From the IMG/VR virus record IMGVR_UViG_2585427736_000013: a stretch of 36,545 nt of DNA, one strand, 5' to 3'. The notes under the pieces are model-generated. The model was not told where the DNA came from. It made no database searches and saw only the letters and a program-made list of their open reading frames with translations. Made by a program: the position numbers and the translations under genes. Origin of the DNA: a virus (taxonomy: Duplodnaviria > Heunggongvirae > Uroviricota > Caudoviricetes). Positions 8,580 to 26,511 of this stretch are shown one piece after another. Position 1 is the first letter of the stretch. The number at the start of each line of letters is the position of its first letter.

Positions 8580-9074
8580 ATGGCCATGATGATGATCTAC
8601 GGCATGTTTGTTTTTGAGCTGCGCACATTGCCGCATCAGCAGTTACAGCAAAACAAAAGCTGGCGGCATGTGAAAAATGAGCGCGTTAACCGTTCAGCAA
8701 GCTGGCAGTATATCGGTGCAGGTGATGATCGCGTCGTTCTTTCTGGTGTGCTTTATCCTGAAATCACAGGTGGCGAAGTGTCCCTGTCGCTGCTGACCAC
8801 GCAGGCGTATACAGGGCGCCCCTGGCCTCTGATTGATGGCGTCGGGCAGATTTACGGCATGTATGTTCTGACTGACACAAGTACGACCCGCTCCGAGTTT
8901 GATCGCTATGGCAAGGCAAAAAAGATAGAGTTTTCACTGACCCTTGACCGCTGTGATGAGGATTTGCGGGAGCGCCTGCAATCCTCATCGTTCAGCGATA
9001 TGCTGACTGGCTTCAAAGATAAGGTAACCTCGTCTTTAAATAGCGTGGCTAACTCAGTTCATAGTTTATTTTAA
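8580..9074 (+). CDS. U: tail protein U
   Basis: 164 aa, GAGGAG Shine-Dalgarno; gpU-like sequence (SWRH, VLSGVLYPEITGG, IDGVGQIYGMYVLTD). Confidence 0.9.
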   Translation: MAMMMIYGMFVFELRTLPHQQLQQNKSWRHVKNERVNRSASWQYIGAGDDRVVLSGVLYPEITGGEVSLSLLTTQAYTGRPWPLIDGVGQIYGMYVLTDTSTTRSEFDRYGKAKKIEFSLTLDRCDEDLRERLQSSSFSDMLTGFKDKVTSSLNSVANSVHSLF

Positions 9075-9096
9075 AGAGTTTAATTTCTTGTGATAA

Positions 9097-9120
9097 ATGG
9101 TCCGTAACATATCGGACCAT
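9097..9120. promoter_or_regulatory. 8-bp inverted repeat immediately downstream of U
   Basis: ATGGTCCG-taacatat-CGGACCAT; no T-tract, so terminator or operator role is unresolved. Confidence 0.3.
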
Positions 9121-9150
9121 TCAAGCACATTACATGTTGGTTCCATCTTA

Positions 9151-9179
9151 TTGAATACATCCAGTAGCCACAATATAAT
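9151..9179 (+). promoter_or_regulatory. sigma70-like promoter upstream of acetyltransferase gene
   Basis: TTGAAT (9151-9156), 17-bp spacer, TATAAT (9174-9179) in an AT-rich leader. Confidence 0.5.
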
Positions 9180-9255
9180 TTCTTGAGAGTTCATTACACA
9201 CCCAGTCAGATTAACACCCCATTACATTGTAAGTGATAATGCAGAGATTAAATTC

Positions 9256-9798
9256 ATGGATATAAAAACATTAAAGGAGTGTATAAAAATAGAAGTTATA
9301 GGCGGAAACCATGAGTTTTCATGGAGAAAAGCTTTAACTCGCACCAGACGCAATAGGCGAAAACACTTTATGTTTTGGTGGCGAGTGGCCAGCTATCTAT
9401 ACAGCAGAGGAGGGTTCATGCGCCGGGTGGGCAAACGCATCGGAGCAAACCTTCATCGCGATTATAATGTTGAGATTCCTTTAACAGTGAGTATAGGGCC
9501 AGGCTTAGATATTGCTCACTTATCAGGTATTGTTATTACAGAAAACTGTGTGATAGGGAGAAATCTACATATAAAGCAAGGTGTTACTATTGGTCTAAGA
9601 ACCCCTTCCAATGAGGCAATGATTACTATTGGAGATAATGTTGATATAGGTTGCAATTCATCTATCCTTGGTGGGCAAGTTAATATCGGTGATAACGTTA
9701 CGATAGGTGCTCATGCTCTGGTAACAAAATCTATTCCTTCCAACTCAATATATATAAACGAAATAACTCCCGTTATAAGACAAAAAAAGGCGCAGTAA
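9256..9798 (+). CDS. hexapeptide-repeat (left-handed beta-helix) acetyltransferase, cargo gene
   Basis: 180 aa with repeated [LIV]-G-x-x-x-x hexapeptide units (IGPGLDIAHLSGIVITENCVIGRNLHIKQGVTIG...); visibly AT-rich relative to flanking phage genes. Confidence 0.8.
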   Translation: MDIKTLKECIKIEVIGGNHEFSWRKALTRTRRNRRKHFMFWWRVASYLYSRGGFMRRVGKRIGANLHRDYNVEIPLTVSIGPGLDIAHLSGIVITENCVIGRNLHIKQGVTIGLRTPSNEAMITIGDNVDIGCNSSILGGQVNIGDNVTIGAHALVTKSIPSNSIYINEITPVIRQKKAQ

Positions 9799-9809
9799 GC
9801 GCCTTTTTT
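9788..9809. terminator. bidirectional intrinsic terminator between acetyltransferase and G
   Basis: A7 - GGCGC - agtaa - GCGCC - T6; acetyltransferase stop codon lies in the loop, G stop (rc of 9809-9811) abuts the T-run. Confidence 0.7.
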
Positions 9810-10384
9810 CATGGTTGCTCTGGCCAATCAATATCGGTGGTATTTTCTGGTTGAATACGATTCACCAATACACGGTACTTCTTCCAGCGTGTCAAGTTTA
9901 TCTTTTCGTCTTCTGTCGCTATATCTAAATCAACAGCGTCCTGCAAAGTAGCAATGATCTTACTCGCATAAGCGATTTGTTCTCTCTTCTGAGATTCGGC
10001 GGCTCTGACAAGTGCATCACGCTCTGCATTCTCATCATTCACCCACGCATTTCCGTTCCATTTCTGATAATCCCCCTCCGGGGAAATGGCTGTCACGTCT
10101 GGAGGTAATGCGCCAAGTTCAGAAATATAAATGGCTGCTCCTGTTTTCGTTTCATAGACGGTCTTTCCGCGATGGTCTTCCATCAGTTCCCATTTCATTT
10201 CATCTGCATTGAAAACGGCTGCATAACCAGCAGGAATATCAGGTGGTGCAATATCTGTACTGTTTGCTGGCAGACCTGTATACGGTGGAATATACGCTTC
10301 ACTTTCCCCAATAAATTCATTGGTTCCATCAAGTAAATTAAATACGCGGATAGTTTGTGCTTCTGCACTCATTCTGAAAGCCAT
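9809..10384 (-). CDS. G: tail fibre assembly chaperone
   Basis: 191 aa; Tfa-like N-terminus ([13 protein letters not shown]...); start overlaps stop of H. Confidence 0.88.
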
Positions 10385-12171
10385 TATGCAAGCCTCACAA
10401 TATAGTTAAATGCGATGTTTTTTACGGTATTTTCTGTATTACCTGTAGCATTAACGGTAATAGAGTGCCCGTGTGAGCCAATAGCAACCGTGTGTGAATG
10501 TGCACCAATACCAACAGTATGGTTATGTGCTCCAATGTTGACTGTATGTGCATGATTGCCTGATGAACTTGTAGTCGTAGCACCTTTATCACTTCGCGGA
10601 ACACCATAATCTGCACCGCCTGATTGCACGCTCACAGCAAAACCGACGGTATGTGTATGATTGCCAGAAGTATTGGTTGATTTTGTGCCGTGGTTAAACG
10701 TACTGACTGTTTTTGTCCCGTAATCAAATGAACTGGTCGTTTTCGTTCCTAAGTCCGTATTTGACGCACTGGCGCTGTGAGTATGCGATTTAATCCCGTC
10801 CTGTTCCTGAGACAATACGGCCCGACCAGTGGCGGGTTTTCCTTTGATTGTCCAGCCACGCATATCAGGGAGCACACCAGAGGGATAAGCTACTGCAAGT
10901 TTCGGGTATGCTGATTTGTCAAAAGCCTGCCCCACCATGATAGCGTAACCGTCAGGCGGCGTATCTGACGGCCACGGCAGAGGTATTCCCGGTGGTAATG
11001 CTTCAATTCCCTTTGTGCCATCAAAAGCAACACCACTGATGGGGTGTGCTGTTTCCAGTTTACTTGCAGATACTGCGTTACCTGTTGCGGATAATGCGCC
11101 AATATCCTGCACTGTGGGCTTGTTTTTATCCGTGTAAGTGCGGTACCAGATGGTTTTTTTTCCCTTGTCCAGTATCACCCCGGTAAATTGTGCCCGGTGT
11201 TCTTTTGTGGTCGGATCTGAATCTTCCAGCCCTGTGGTGATCCTGACTATTCCGCCGATGATTTCGCCAAACACTTCAATCAGGCAGCCGCCCAGGCCGA
11301 TATCACCGTACCCCGTGTCAGTAAGCACGCAGTGCTGTGACAGCGAAATATTAGCCCTGAATATCCAGCTCCCTGTTCTGAAGGCGCCACGCTCATTCAG
11401 CCACTCCACGAATTGTTCCGTTGTCCAGCGTTGTCCTGCTTTACCTATGTACCCGTTTTTTGCATAAACGCGTGGTGTGCCCACGTTGATCAGGAACAGC
11501 TCCTTGTTGGGGATGTCCTCACCATTGCGGTTTTTCGCAAGCCGACCATCAGCGTTGTCCATGGCGATCTTTATGGCCTTTGGCGTGGCTGCCCGGGTCT
11601 CTGATGTACTGGTGGTGTCGCTGCTTAACTGAGTAAAACCTTTTGTGGTCAGCGAGGCATCCGGGTGACGTCGTGACTGTTCATGCTCTTTCAGTTTGTC
11701 ATCCACGTAATCCACTGTGGCCATCACCATGGTGTTATCCACGGTAAGCGCCACGGTGGCAGTGCTGGATACGGTCAGAATGGTGCGAAATGTTTGTGCA
11801 CGTCCGGACCCTTCGGCAACGGTTGGTTTGTAACTTTCGGCAGTATTGCCCACCGCGATTAAATCGCCGTGCTCATCAAATACACCAATTTCCCGGATCC
11901 AGAATCCGCCCGTTTCAGGAGGAATAACCAGCTCCGCAATAATGCGGTTCTGATGTGTTGCGTCCAGGATGACGCGATTAACAGTGTTTCGCCACACCTC
12001 ATGCACCAGACGGATCTGCTTACTGTCTGGTGTGGGCAACGTGCCGCCACCGTCGCCCACGGCCATATGAGTCAGGCGGACAGGCTTACCATCTGGCGCG
12101 GCTGCCTGAGCTAATTTTTTTGCACCCGTATCGGTGATAACGGTTTTAAATTTTCGTGTTGTGGTACTCAT
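10384..12171 (-). CDS. H: tail fibre protein
   Basis: 595 aa; N-terminal region like P2 H ([43 protein letters not shown]); C-terminal region with repeated GNHxHTV / HxH motifs. Confidence 0.9.
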
Positions 12172-12173
12172 GC

Positions 12174-12704
12174 TTAATCGCCTGGATAAATGGTAATAAC
12201 TTCACCGTCATAAGTTGCCGCCGCTGCGAAAATATCCCCCGGAATTTCCTGAATGATATTCAGCCCTGTCATGTGGCGGCTGACCGGGCGGGCATCAGCA
12301 ATCAATCGCTCCATTTCCAGATACATTTCCTCCGTCACGCCACTGTCCAGCGTGCCGACTTCAACGGTAAATGTTCCCGGTTCTCCGCCGAACTCCCACC
12401 ACTCAGACACGCGAATGAGGTATCCCAGCGGCTCAATGGCCCGGCGCAGTGCGCTGATGGTCCCTTTGTGTCGGTGTATCAGCCATGCATCACGAATAAC
12501 CTGTCGCTTTGTCTCTTCCGGCCAGTTGCGATCCCAGCGGTCAACGGAAAATGCCCAGGCGAGATAAGGCAGCAGATGCACCGGGCAGGTGTCCGGCGAC
12601 CACAGCGTGTTGAGGTCTACCGGGATGTCTGTAATGCGCGCTCCGACAGCTTCGGCACAACGCATGAAATTGCTGGCTGATGGCGGTAACAGTGAATTAC
12701 TCAT
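12174..12704 (-). CDS. I: baseplate assembly protein I
   Basis: Track frame 12174..12737; start moved to ATG (rc of 12702-12704) with AAGGTGGG Shine-Dalgarno and ATGA-type overlap with J stop, giving 176 aa. Confidence 0.88.
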
Positions 12705-23906: not shown

Positions 23907-24263
23907 ATGGAAATGAATATGAAAACTGTAACTGATGATGAATTTCGTGAGAACCTGAGTGAAATTCTGGATTACCTTTCTTCCGGTGGCAGTGTCGTTA
24001 TCACGGCGCAGGGAGGGAAGGATGTTGTTCTTGCTGGTTCTGATCTTAGTCCTGAAATACGGGCTGTCCTTGGCAAAACCAAAAAACTGCGGGATCAAAT
24101 AAACAAAATGAAGCAACCACTCTTAATAAATGCAGTGAGAGATCTGGAAAAACGTCATCCAGCTCTTGTCGCACAGAGAAAAAAAGGATTGTCTTTTGAA
24201 GATGCAATGAAGCGTACAAGAGAAAAACATGCGGATATCATTAAAAAGCTTGAGGATAACTGA
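23907..24263 (+). CDS. phd: Phd/YefM-type antitoxin (long form, 118 aa)
   Basis: N-terminal region resembles the Phd/YefM fold (FRENLSEILDYLSSGGSVVITAQGGKDVVLA); stop overlaps doc start (TGATG); three in-frame ATGs within 12 nt, so the exact start is uncertain. Confidence 0.7.
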   Translation: MEMNMKTVTDDEFRENLSEILDYLSSGGSVVITAQGGKDVVLAGSDLSPEIRAVLGKTKKLRDQINKMKQPLLINAVRDLEKRHPALVAQRKKGLSFEDAMKRTREKHADIIKKLEDN

Positions 24264-24670
24264 TGGACATAGTGTTTTTGTCAAAAGAACAAGTAGAACG
24301 TATCCATGCTGAAACTTTACCCCAGAGCGGAAATGCCAATGACGGGCTACTTGAAGGTGCTTTAAATCGCGTCAGGACACTACACTACTATGAAGGGGTT
24401 GATGATATTCATGCTCTGGCTGCTATGTATTTGATTGGTATAGCTAAGGCTCATGCCTTTCATGATGGGAATAAACGCACAGCTTTTCAGGCTGCATCAA
24501 TATTTTTAATGATGAACTCTTCCGAACTTTCAAACTCCCTGCTGCTGGTTAAATTAACGGTGTTTTCAGCAATGGGGATAGCTACCCTTGAGGAAGTTAC
24601 CTTTGCTTTGAAATTGCTGTCTGATTATGGCAATGAATTAATCAGCGACTACGAAGAAGATTATATTTAA
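24263..24670 (+). CDS. doc: Doc (death-on-curing) Fic-fold toxin
   Basis: 135 aa containing the Doc-type motif HAFHDGNKRTA. Confidence 0.85.
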   Translation: MDIVFLSKEQVERIHAETLPQSGNANDGLLEGALNRVRTLHYYEGVDDIHALAAMYLIGIAKAHAFHDGNKRTAFQAASIFLMMNSSELSNSLLLVKLTVFSAMGIATLEEVTFALKLLSDYGNELISDYEEDYI

Positions 24671-24836: not shown

Positions 24837-25172
24837 TCATTCATGCGTTTTTTCTTCATGGTCTGTCACTTCTCTCCTGATAAATTCATTGCACAAATCA
24901 ACGCACTCATTGCAGATGTAAACAGACGGTCCGGCAATCAGCTTTGTGACTTCGTACTGGGATTTATTGCAGAAGCTGCAATAAATCGTCTTCTCGCCTG
25001 AAGTCCATGTTTTGCTGGTTTCGCCAGACATCAGTTGTTTGATGTCTTTTTCACGACGAAGAACTATCCGGCCACATTCAGCTATTTTTTGGATGTTGAC
25101 ATTTTCTTCTTTCGCCAGCGCTTCCATTCGCTCAATCAGTCGCTGCGCTTTTTCTCTGTCAATGTGTTGCAT
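24837..25172 (-). CDS. small protein with C-terminal ClpX-type C4 zinc-binding domain
   Basis: 111 aa; residues 64-100 ([38 protein letters not shown]) closely match the N-terminal zinc-binding domain of ClpX as recalled; AAGGGG Shine-Dalgarno. Confidence 0.8.
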
Positions 25173-25206
25173 TGTGTCCCCTTTGTTTATGTTCCCGGAT
25201 TAAAGT

Positions 25207-25230
25207 CATCAGGGCGGATGCGCCCTGATG
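25207..25230 (-). terminator. strong hairpin between parR and the zinc-binding-domain gene
   Basis: perfect 10-bp stem CATCAGGGCG/CGCCCTGATG with 4-nt loop, 6 nt past the parR stop; weak U-tract. Confidence 0.4.
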
Positions 25231-25235
25231 TTGTG

Positions 25236-25547
25236 TTATTCGGGAAATAATGCCCGGATATTTCCGGCCATCTGACTGGTTATCTGTGCGGTTGGTACTG
25301 GCTGTGACACGGGGCGTTCTGTCCTGGTTTGTGTCAGGGATAACGCTTCATCGTCAGCCCATGCAGCCAGTCGGTAAGCCTCTGCCGGATTAATTTTCAT
25401 AAGTGCCAGTCCGGCCAGAAAAGCCACGCGTTGACCACTTTTGCGGGCTTCTGGTGTAAGGCTGTCCAGCCAGGCGCATGCTTCGCCTTCGTTCTTGACG
25501 GCGGCGGGCTTCAGATAGAAACTTATCCGTCTGGTTGGTGTCGTCAT
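25236..25547 (-). CDS. parR: ParR/StbB-like centromere-binding protein
   Basis: Track frame 25236..25682; start placed at ATG (rc of 25545-25547) with AAGGAG Shine-Dalgarno just after parM stop; N-terminus resembles plasmid R1 ParR as recalled. Confidence 0.7.
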   Translation of the reverse strand: MTTPTRRISFYLKPAAVKNEGEACAWLDSLTPEARKSGQRVAFLAGLALMKINPAEAYRLAAWADDEALSLTQTRTERPVSQPVPTAQITSQMAGNIRALFPE

Positions 25548-25551
25548 TGGT

Positions 25552-26511
25552 TTACTCCTTGTCCATTGCGTACAGCCCATTAACCAGAGCAAACTGTGGC
25601 ACCCCGTCCGCGATGAAAGTCGCATTAACTCCGCAGGCTTCGCGGATAGCGGGTGCCACAATCTCCGCCCCGCCACCGACAACCATCACCCGCCCGTAAC
25701 CCGAAAAACCCGCCAGCGCGCGGATCACGCGTTGTTTCAGTGTTTCTTCCTTTTCACGAATAACCGCCATCAGGCTGGCGTAATGCGCGTCATTGTGGAT
25801 GTGCTGGCGCAACCAGGCTTCATCATGGCGATGTTCGATAATGGTATTGGCGATGTGGTGACTGGTACGCATACCGTTAGTGGCCATCACCGACAGTACG
25901 GCATCGGCCATCAGGGAAACGCCTACGTGTGGATCGCAAAACACCTGGCTGATACCTGCCAGTTGCCCCTGAACCTTTGCCACATCCAGTGTGGTTCCGC
26001 CTAAATCCACAATCAGCAGGGATTCAAACGGACTCATGTCAGCCAGTGCCTTAAAGCCAGCCGGAATGGATTCAGGCATAACCCGTACGTTACGGATAGT
26101 GAATGCTTCGCCGTTCTGGTACTCCACCGGGCGCATGACGTTCGCTTTTTTGCGGTTGATGTTGGCCATGTCCGGCTGTGCGTTTGTGTCGAAATATTCG
26201 CTCAGTGGCAGGGTGACAACCACATCCACTTCCTGTGGTGTGATGCCTGATTTGACCAGCGCGTGGTGAATGGCGATTACATTCACATCGCTGTACTGGT
26301 ATTGCGTGTCGGTCGTCTGGACAAAGCGATCGCTGACCGGATCAAAACCATAGCGCACGCCATCAAGCATGTAGTTCGCGGGCTGCGTGCCACCGAACGG
26401 CGCAGACCATTCCGACTTGAAGCTGTTCGGGCTGATGGCGTTGCGGCGTTCGCCGTTCTCAGTCCATGCCAGCTTGATGTTGGTGGAGCCGTCGTCGATA
26501 CAAATTTTCAT
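25552..26511 (-). CDS. parM: ParM/StbA-like actin-type segregation ATPase
   Basis: 319 aa; extended similarity to plasmid R1 ParM as recalled (IDDGSTNIKL, ISPNSF, QYSDVNV, RKKANV, VMPESIPAG, LLIVDLGGTTLD, GGGAE, LVNGLY). Confidence 0.85.
   Translation of the reverse strand: MKICIDDGSTNIKLAWTENGERRNAISPNSFKSEWSAPFGGTQPANYMLDGVRYGFDPVSDRFVQTTDTQYQYSDVNVIAIHHALVKSGITPQEVDVVVTLPLSEYFDTNAQPDMANINRKKANVMRPVEYQNGEAFTIRNVRVMPESIPAGFKALADMSPFESLLIVDLGGTTLDVAKVQGQLAGISQVFCDPHVGVSLMADAVLSVMATNGMRTSHHIANTIIEHRHDEAWLRQHIHNDAHYASLMAVIREKEETLKQRVIRALAGFSGYGRVMVVGGGAEIVAPAIREACGVNATFIADGVPQFALVNGLYAMDKE

Follow-up and report, generated by a model that had tools for sequence, protein, structure and literature searches.

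What does an acetyltransferase gene of low GC content do for a phage, or for its host, when it lies between the tail gene U and the tail-fibre assembly gene G of a prophage? The question is raised by the IMG/VR record IMGVR_UViG_2585427736_000013, whose 36,545 nucleotides are here called the window (the whole stretch of DNA that was analysed). The window is an Escherichia coli P88-like (Xuanwuvirus) P2-family prophage adjoining serS. An original prediction, made from its letters alone, had singled out positions 9075-9809 as an AT-rich cargo segment for a hexapeptide acetyltransferase, possibly one that modifies lipopolysaccharide (LPS) or another surface polysaccharide. We find that this segment is a self-contained AT-rich cargo gene for a left-handed beta-helix (LbH) acetyltransferase. 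The comparisons set out below place its product close to WcaB and away from the serine acetyltransferases under whose name it is filed. On balance, we lean towards an acetyltransferase that would be expressed in the lysogen and would decorate LPS (core or O-unit), changing the receptor surface of the cell.

An AT-rich acetyltransferase gene between U and G

The features of the gap and of its borders are as follows (coordinates in the window, strand, description).

9060-9821, not stranded: low-GC segment (0.379) without a near DNA match in related phages; it contains the promoter, the gene, the terminator and the last codons of U and G
9151-9179, plus: sigma-70-like promoter TTGAAT-17-TATAAT (-35 at 9151-9156, -10 at 9174-9179; 10/12 matches)
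9211-9240, plus: second promoter-like site, TTAACA-18-GATAAT (10/12 matches)
9256-9798, plus: LbH acetyltransferase open reading frame (ORF), 180 aa, ATG start (CysE/WcaB/EpsC clade, PHROG 2154); N-terminal four-helix segment at residues 1-69, LbH domain from about residue 70, with His88 and Glu73
9783-9809, both strands: two-way intrinsic terminator hairpin, found by folding, common to the acetyltransferase gene and G
8580-9074, plus: tail gene U, which borders the slot on the left (Phage_P2_GpU, 1.2e-38)
9809-10384, minus: tail-fibre assembly gene G, 191 aa (Caudo_TAP, 1.8e-37), convergent with the acetyltransferase gene
10384-12171, minus: tail-fibre gene H, 595 aa, with its C-terminal tip at about 10384-11007 and a variable middle

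Base composition bears out the AT-richness that had been noticed by eye. The GC content of the gene is 0.392 (0.320 at third codon positions, GC3) and that of the intergenic stretch 9075-9255 is 0.348, against 0.527 for the whole window; a value as low as that of the gene is reached in only 12 of 721 intervals of 543 nt. DNA homology to P88-like phages ends at about 9059 (megablast) and a match to a P2-type G gene begins at about 9822, so that the foreign segment measures some 760 bp. The neighbouring G is itself low in GC (0.441, GC3 0.354, compared with 0.55-0.59 for I and J), which suggests a foreign origin in common with the acetyltransferase gene. The cassette DNA (9075-9809) found no blastn match among 5,426 complete RefSeq E. 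coli genomes, and a search of phage DNA returned only a 100-nt match, to Hafnia phage yong2. In public draft and other assemblies, the identical 180-aa protein turns up in 123 indexed blocks, a 5.16-Mb contig among them; for a related E. coli variant the number of blocks is 594. In all ten of the places listed for the identical protein, the gene occupies the same position between U and G, in closely related prophages at several chromosomal sites.

The near-consensus promoter that had been proposed for the gene is present, with 10 of 12 consensus positions matched, but the match by itself does not stand far above chance: dinucleotide shuffling of 9075-9255 yields a site with at least 10/12 matches in 8.5% of cases and a pair of such sites in 0.7%. 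Transcription from TTGAAT-17-TATAAT is predicted to start near 9186, leaving a leader of about 70 nt, and from TTAACA-18-GATAAT near 9247, which would make the message almost leaderless. Support for the promoter comes from other lineages of the gene, because these have non-homologous TATAAT or TACAAT boxes of their own at a similar distance, 40-70 nt upstream (for example, TAGAAA-17-TATAAT or TACAAT, TTGTCA-17-TATAAT, and TTGGCT-17-TATAAT). Such recurrence fits a cargo gene that would be transcribed independently. In the same region, a 42-aa ORF on the opposite strand (9066-9194, minus) spans the promoter, with a weak promoter-like site on the minus strand at 9096-9068; nothing supports a gene there.

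At the other end of the gene, folding on both strands upholds the proposed bidirectional terminator shared with G. The hairpin, between A7 on one side and T6 on the other, has a GGCGC/GCGCC core and an AGUAA loop in which the stop codon TAA (9796-9798) falls; its last T overlaps the stop codon of G, and it folds at about -18 kcal/mol on each strand (z about -2.6). A consensus terminator scan missed it, probably because an extension of the stem absorbs the T run, and comparison with Rfam gave sub-threshold matches only, on this same hairpin.

What usually fills the gap can be seen in related phages. In P88 and in Citrobacter phage phiSM, the space between U and G is taken up by a Cin/Gin-type DNA invertase together with an alternative fibre tip and the assembly gene that goes with it. 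The window has the acetyltransferase segment of about 760 bp in that place; the invertase and the alternative fibre genes are absent, and no meaningful inverted repeats that might be remnant invertase crossover sites were found in 8900-12300. The cargo slot had been equated with the Z/fun slot of P2. This holds on the G side only, because the FI-U block is inverted in the window's phage lineage and the gap is consequently bounded by U on its other side. The P2-type slot beside G is known in the literature as "moron position 2" (PMC3573123). In the P2-type phage P24A7b, three small unrelated genes separate a 90%-identical G from FI, and there is no acetyltransferase.

Family of the encoded protein

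The LbH acetyltransferase ORF stands as originally described: Pfam Hexapep (PF00132) matches the protein at 31.8 bits, above its gathering cut-off of 27. PHROG 2154, a phage family whose function is given as unknown in PHROGs, matches from end to end (3.1e-61; residues 2-178 on profile positions 5-182 of 185). For NCBIfam, the best 25 of 37 matched families were listed, and the best models all score below their cut-offs: EpsC reaches 82.7 bits (cut-off 150), cysE TIGR01172 71.9 (210.65), and WcaB 64.8 (194.65), and PRK11132 reaches 42.2 against a cut-off of 397. The nearest solved structures are serine acetyltransferases (6wye, 3e-12), and serine acetyltransferase is also the name that sources give to the protein.

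Over-reliance on that name would be misleading. In an alignment to E. coli CysE (28% identity), His88 falls on His158 and Glu73 on Asp143; Asp157 is replaced by Ala87 and Arg192-His193 by Ala121-Met122, and the region of Asp92 has no aligned counterpart. The roles of Asp92, Asp157, Arg192 and His193 in CysE are taken from PMC9547175, and residue roles also from PMC13040420. The SATase_N domain (PF06426) gave no Pfam match, the approximately 70 N-terminal residues aligning to the last helices of CysE, and the protein ends ...IRQKKAQ right after the LbH domain, without the CysK-binding C-terminal tail that ends in Ile. Identity to E. coli WcaB is 36% over 136 aa; the alignment has one gap in the N-terminal part and, in the LbH part, a gap of a single residue, while the active-site loop, of equal length in the two proteins, is free of gaps. 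Because residues, domains and scores all depart from CysE, and because identity to WcaB is higher, the protein is by these comparisons a WcaB-like member of the CysE/WcaB/EpsC clade, and its database name a misnomer. An identity as CysE was rejected on the same three grounds. The original prediction had named housekeeping CysE enzymes, with conserved serine-binding residues, as the closest homologues that would refute it; the closest relatives proved not to be such enzymes, and those residues are not conserved.

Other identities were also searched for. The membrane domain Acyl_transf_3 (PF01757) gave no Pfam match, and the structural model, a bundle of helices joined to a beta part, has no long hydrophobic segments. 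No defence family of PADLOC-DB v2 matched at E <= 0.01. Models of the XAT, Vat or CatB type are missing from the best 25 of the 37 NCBIfam matches, and an identity as XAT or antibiotic acetyltransferase was rejected for that reason.

Across an alignment of 28 family members, the N-terminal residues E13, F21, W23, F40, W41 and R43 are invariant. An AlphaFold2 monomer built from this alignment has a mean predicted local distance difference test (pLDDT) score of 70.6, with about 88 in the N-terminal helical segment. A Foldseek search of the PDB with this low-confidence model returned nothing at E <= 0.001, was uninformative, and was discarded. A scan of genome contigs was swamped by generic LbH proteins resembling serine acetyltransferases (SATs), the true family members among them coming from Leminorella and Erwinia only. 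No paper characterising the family was found in the literature; the JL22 paper leaves the reason for the gene's presence unexplained, and a Citrobacter paper lists the gene merely as a "fitness" gene.

Fibre-gene linkage, chromosomal relatives and proposed role

The association with tail-fibre genes extends well beyond the window. Among 194 relatives in IMG/VR, 76 loci have a neighbour that could be scored; the next gene is convergent and no more than 30 nt away in 60 of these, and in 55 of the 76 the neighbour is a Caudo_TAP tail-fibre assembly gene. The same arrangement recurs in P88-like, P1-like, phiNP-like, Mu-like-baseplate and yong2-type phages, and the linkage to the assembly gene persists over at least eight lineages and several phage types. 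For instance, P1-like phage-plasmids have the gene between the lyd/dar genes and the assembly gene (in JL22 it is named "sacF"), and another Escherichia phage has a 75%-identical gene in the same arrangement. Further carriers are Citrobacter phiNP, Hafnia yong2, vB_EcoM-613R2, a Salmonella prophage with a Mu-like baseplate, and a Gibbsiella prophage remnant.

The clearest case is a variant 52% identical to the window's protein. Its P1-like and P88-like loci are 92-95% identical in DNA across one block only, which begins 70-90 nt before the start codon of the acetyltransferase gene and takes in that gene, the assembly gene and the fibre tip. In this lineage, unrelated backbones have in common one block made up of promoter, acetyltransferase gene, assembly gene and fibre tip. 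The view of the gene as inserted cargo therefore needs qualifying: in the window it does lie in a foreign segment, whereas in the 52%-identical lineage it moves as a block with fibre genes. Divergence of the acetyltransferase is correlated with that of the assembly protein (Spearman 0.73; in a Mantel test, 0 of 2000 permutations were as high; 42 unique pairs from 10 lineages). For the window's own variant, every carrier seen has the same G and the same fibre tip, the tip of H at about 10384-11007 being kept in every prophage seen with the identical acetyltransferase. As a separate observation, the middle of H (about 11007-11511 in the window) has a longer replacement in sister prophages, whose H measures 872 aa rather than 595 aa, while tip and N-terminus are still 93-98% identical.

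Three chromosomal homologues have neighbourhoods related to LPS. In Leminorella grimontii, a homologue with 45% identity over 173 aa closes the waa operon and converges on WaaL, the order being GT4, WaaP, WaaB, WaaI/O, WaaY, WaaZ and acetyltransferase; WaaP, WaaB, WaaI/O, WaaY, WaaZ and WaaL all score above curated cut-offs. We take its position to be that of WaaK or WaaU in Salmonella and K-12. The homologue of Pseudomonas mendocina (45% over 168 aa) lies in an LPS-core cluster with four Kdo/WaaP-family kinases, a carbamoyltransferase, a GT2 glycosyltransferase and MsbA as neighbours. In Proteus mirabilis, a homologue with 47% identity stands between cysE and trmL and adjoins a GT2 glycosyltransferase, with genes for a UDP-sugar dehydrogenase, an epimerase and a nucleotidyltransferase nearby; this is presumably the O-antigen locus, a point on which a literature search gave nothing useful. 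In Rosenbergiella (L202), we also observed a homologue divergent from an Acyl_transf_3+SGNH (OafA-like) gene. Homologues some 45-47% identical, in LPS-related clusters, lend the original LPS or surface-polysaccharide reading real, if indirect, comparative support.

How such an enzyme might work in the lysogen can be outlined from these comparisons. The protein would be a soluble, acetyl-CoA-dependent LbH enzyme, presumably trimeric like the rest of the superfamily, and would be transcribed from its own sigma-70 promoter. Since that predicted promoter is its own and is independent of the late tail operons, the enzyme is probably made in the lysogen. Because LbH enzymes are soluble and use acetyl-CoA, it would have to act before export, acetylating a lipid-linked surface-glycan intermediate at the cytoplasmic face of the inner membrane. 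The LPS core is assembled on lipid A at that face, and the core on lipid A would be the most likely acceptor; otherwise, an O-unit linked to undecaprenyl diphosphate (Und-PP), or a similar repeat unit, might serve. In RefSeq, the colanic-acid transferases WcaE and WcaA have product names that refer to acetylated Und-PP-linked acceptors, so WcaB-type acetylations probably take place on cytoplasmic lipid-linked intermediates. The decorated LPS would then be exported. The likely pay-off would be an altered phage receptor or antigenic surface, leading to superinfection exclusion and to fewer progeny lost on cell debris. LPS core is what the fibres of this phage group recognise: those of phiNP and phiSM bind core GlcII and GlcIII, the mapped receptor of phiNP being GlcII (PMC6456863), and phiNP has a homologue beside its assembly gene.

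Several observations weigh against LPS modification in the lysogen. The R1-R4 and K-12 cores of E. coli are not known to bear O-acetyl groups. Genomic contexts at about 45% identity do not fix the acceptor of the window's protein, and orphan homologues with a major facilitator superfamily (MFS) transporter nearby occur in Intestinirhabdus and Erwinia (L024, L028). The 2-kb region that was scanned has five promoter-like sites where 4.7 are expected, so that the promoter match taken alone is near chance and is weak evidence, and the ribosome-binding site of the gene is weak as well. The column of His88 holds Tyr in 5 of the 28 aligned members, including the abundant P0036 variant (783 member sequences), which is carried by P1-like phage-plasmids and many P88-like prophages; two members with Tyr (P0025 and P0028) have no His in the aligned stretch near that position. 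Such variants may be inactive, may use another base, or may act on an amine acceptor. The LbH part of the AlphaFold2 model, at pLDDT 46-72, has short strands at the expected period and is of low confidence. Further, a minority of copies lie beside an integrase or at prophage ends, away from fibre genes, and for the window's own variant the linkage is loose, because P24A7b has its 90%-identical G without the acetyltransferase.

The evidence can also be set against other explanations. The name of the protein in the sources implies a true serine O-acetyltransferase, encoded by an auxiliary metabolic gene through which the lysogen would make more O-acetylserine and cysteine or step up CysB signalling; the best solved structures are SATs (6wye, 3e-12), cysE and EpsC are the top NCBIfam models, and the catalytic His and its acidic partner are retained. 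However, scores of 72 bits against 210.65 (TIGR01172) and 42 against 397 (PRK11132), the lack of SATase_N, Asp157, Arg192-His193 and the Ile-ending C-terminal tail, and the higher identity to WcaB (36%) than to CysE (28%) all speak against it. Relatives are found in LPS clusters and by fibre genes, not in cysteine regulons, and the Proteus homologue directly adjoins a real cysE; we consider this explanation extremely improbable. Scarcely better are the prospects of an enzyme whose target in lytic growth would be the tail fibre of the phage, the assembly chaperone or some other part of the virion. Conserved adjacency to Caudo_TAP genes, and their joint movement in one lineage, would suit it, but the gene is convergent, with its own sigma-70-type promoter and terminator outside the late operon, some phages have it by the integrase and far from fibre genes, non-phage relatives lie in LPS operons, and P24A7b manages with a 90%-identical G and no such gene.

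More serious, although we still think it unlikely, is an intracellular enzyme of defence or counter-defence, or one that acetylates a small molecule or xenobiotic, in a variable cargo slot whose adjacency to fibre genes would merely mark a recombination hot spot. LbH enzymes include antibiotic acetyltransferases, several relatives lie at prophage ends or by MFS transporters, the function of the PHROG is unknown, and the JL22 authors found the presence of the gene unexplained. P2-like phages do have hot spots for antiviral genes (PMC9122126), and a phd-doc pair occupies the other cargo slot of this very prophage. Yet the hot spot of Rousset and colleagues (PMC9122126) is the old/tin slot, with acetyltransferases not mentioned there, nor are they mentioned in a 2026 preprint on P2 hot spots. 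The protein has no PADLOC match and no XAT, Vat or CatB-type model among its best 25 of 37 NCBIfam matches; three chromosomal relatives lie in LPS-related clusters, and the assembly-gene linkage spans at least eight lineages and several phage types.

LPS decoration in the lysogen can be taken one step further, to a matched pair in which the acetyltransferase, while the LPS core is being assembled in the cytoplasm, would acetylate and so mask the very sugar that is bound by the co-inherited fibre tip, with the tip and the assembly gene as its partners; we put this forward tentatively, as a rather doubtful proposal. Were the pairing real, temperate myoviruses (P2-like, P1-like, Mu-like) that swap fibre cassettes would also receive the cognate receptor mask, and in some lineages a receptor mask would stand in place of an invertase-driven fibre switch. 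Fibre cassettes would then carry their own receptor mask, with a bearing on host-range prediction and on engineered P2- or P1-based delivery vehicles. The pair would also amount to phage-borne O-acetylation of the LPS core from the cytoplasm; the seroconverting enzymes known to us act on O-antigen through membrane proteins. If LPS modification as such is correct, temperate phages would have in this common, mis-named prophage gene a means of re-decorating LPS from within, and phage susceptibility, serology and perhaps immune recognition would be affected. The label "serine acetyltransferase" on PHROG 2154 and related proteins should at the least give way to "LbH acetyltransferase, WcaB-like, probable LPS modification".

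Prophage setting and comparison with known systems

The prophage that surrounds the gene is of a familiar type. The serS gene at 1-1293 is 99.9% identical to E. coli serS, and from there the order runs ogr and D (minus), FI, FII, E, E', T and U (plus), and G, H, I, J, W and V (minus). U is 93% identical in DNA to P88-like phages of the genus Xuanwuvirus, and a locus in assembly GCA_000713975.1 (L010) is a 100% match to the first 19.8 kb of the window. A 46-aa hok/gef-like gene lies between serS and ogr (1596-1736, minus); it is called in the identical locus L010 and has a weak Pfam match. Closely related prophages occupy other chromosomal sites, for example by pheT/ihfA-like or uvrC/pgsA-like genes. 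A low-GC pair (23907-24670, plus) follows the portal gene, in the slot known from P2 as "old/tin"; it encodes a Phd/YefM-like antitoxin (118 aa) and a Fic/Doc toxin (135 aa), the Doc protein having weak matches to PADLOC PDC-S23. Adjoining this pair are genes for a ParM-like actin (StbA_N, 1.8e-82) and for a protein with a ClpX-type zinc finger (24837-26511, minus); a partition system occurs in about a quarter of P2-like phages (PMC9122126), and these two genes fit with this.

Prophage-borne cargo for glycan acetyltransferases is a known kind of thing; the family in the window is uncharacterised in the literature, is linked to fibre cassettes, and is misleadingly named. Its closest enzymatic likeness is to WcaB (E. 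coli K-12 b2058), which shares the short helical N-terminus followed by LbH, the active-site loop length and the catalytic His, and which is also without the serine-binding residues of CysE. It differs from WcaB in having about 20 extra N-terminal residues, with the family-invariant set listed above, in its score of 64.8 bits against 194.65, which does not make it an equivalog, and in lying in a prophage rather than in the colanic acid cluster. CysE belongs to the same LbH clade, provides the best solved-structure matches, and has its His158 and Asp143 kept as equivalents. The phage protein falls far short of the CysE cut-offs and has no SATase_N, no Asp157, no Arg192/His193 and no tail for binding CysK.

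The gap itself invites comparison with the Cin/Gin-type invertase and invertible fibre segment of P88, phiSM and P1, which sit in the same place, between U (lyd/dar in P1) and the assembly gene. That system is a switch of host range and not an enzyme acting on the host, and the window's gap contains no invertase.

With prophage conversion acetyltransferases, the gene has in common its temperate phage, a predicted transcription unit of its own, and an orientation convergent with late genes. NeaT (c0970), from a P2-like prophage of E. coli CFT073, is likewise AT-rich acyltransferase cargo just downstream of G and opposite to the flanking tail genes (PMC3573123). It differs in being a membrane Acyl_transf_3 protein (PF01757) of unrelated fold that acts at or across the membrane, and in lying between G and FI, not between G and U. 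NeaT thereby serves as the precedent for position. Oac and GtrC, which acetylate O-antigen and are encoded by temperate phages, are integral membrane enzymes, in contrast to the predicted cytoplasmic LbH enzyme of the window, which would have to act before export. What they would share with the proposed role is lysogenic conversion through acetylation of the glycan that the phage (Sf6 for Oac; BTP1 for GtrC, PMC4413052) recognises.

NeuO, of prophage CUS-3 in E. coli K1, belongs to another LbH subfamily and does not figure among the 55 solved sequences that matched at E <= 0.001; it is also phase-variable by heptanucleotide repeats, whereas positions 8900-10000 of the window hold no tandem repeats. 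It is nevertheless a prophage-encoded, soluble LbH O-acetyltransferase that acts on a surface glycan, the polysialic acid of the K1 capsule (PMC3046976), and it raises resistance to phage (PMC13001214). By that analogy, NeuO would be the best functional precedent for the acetyltransferase between U and G.

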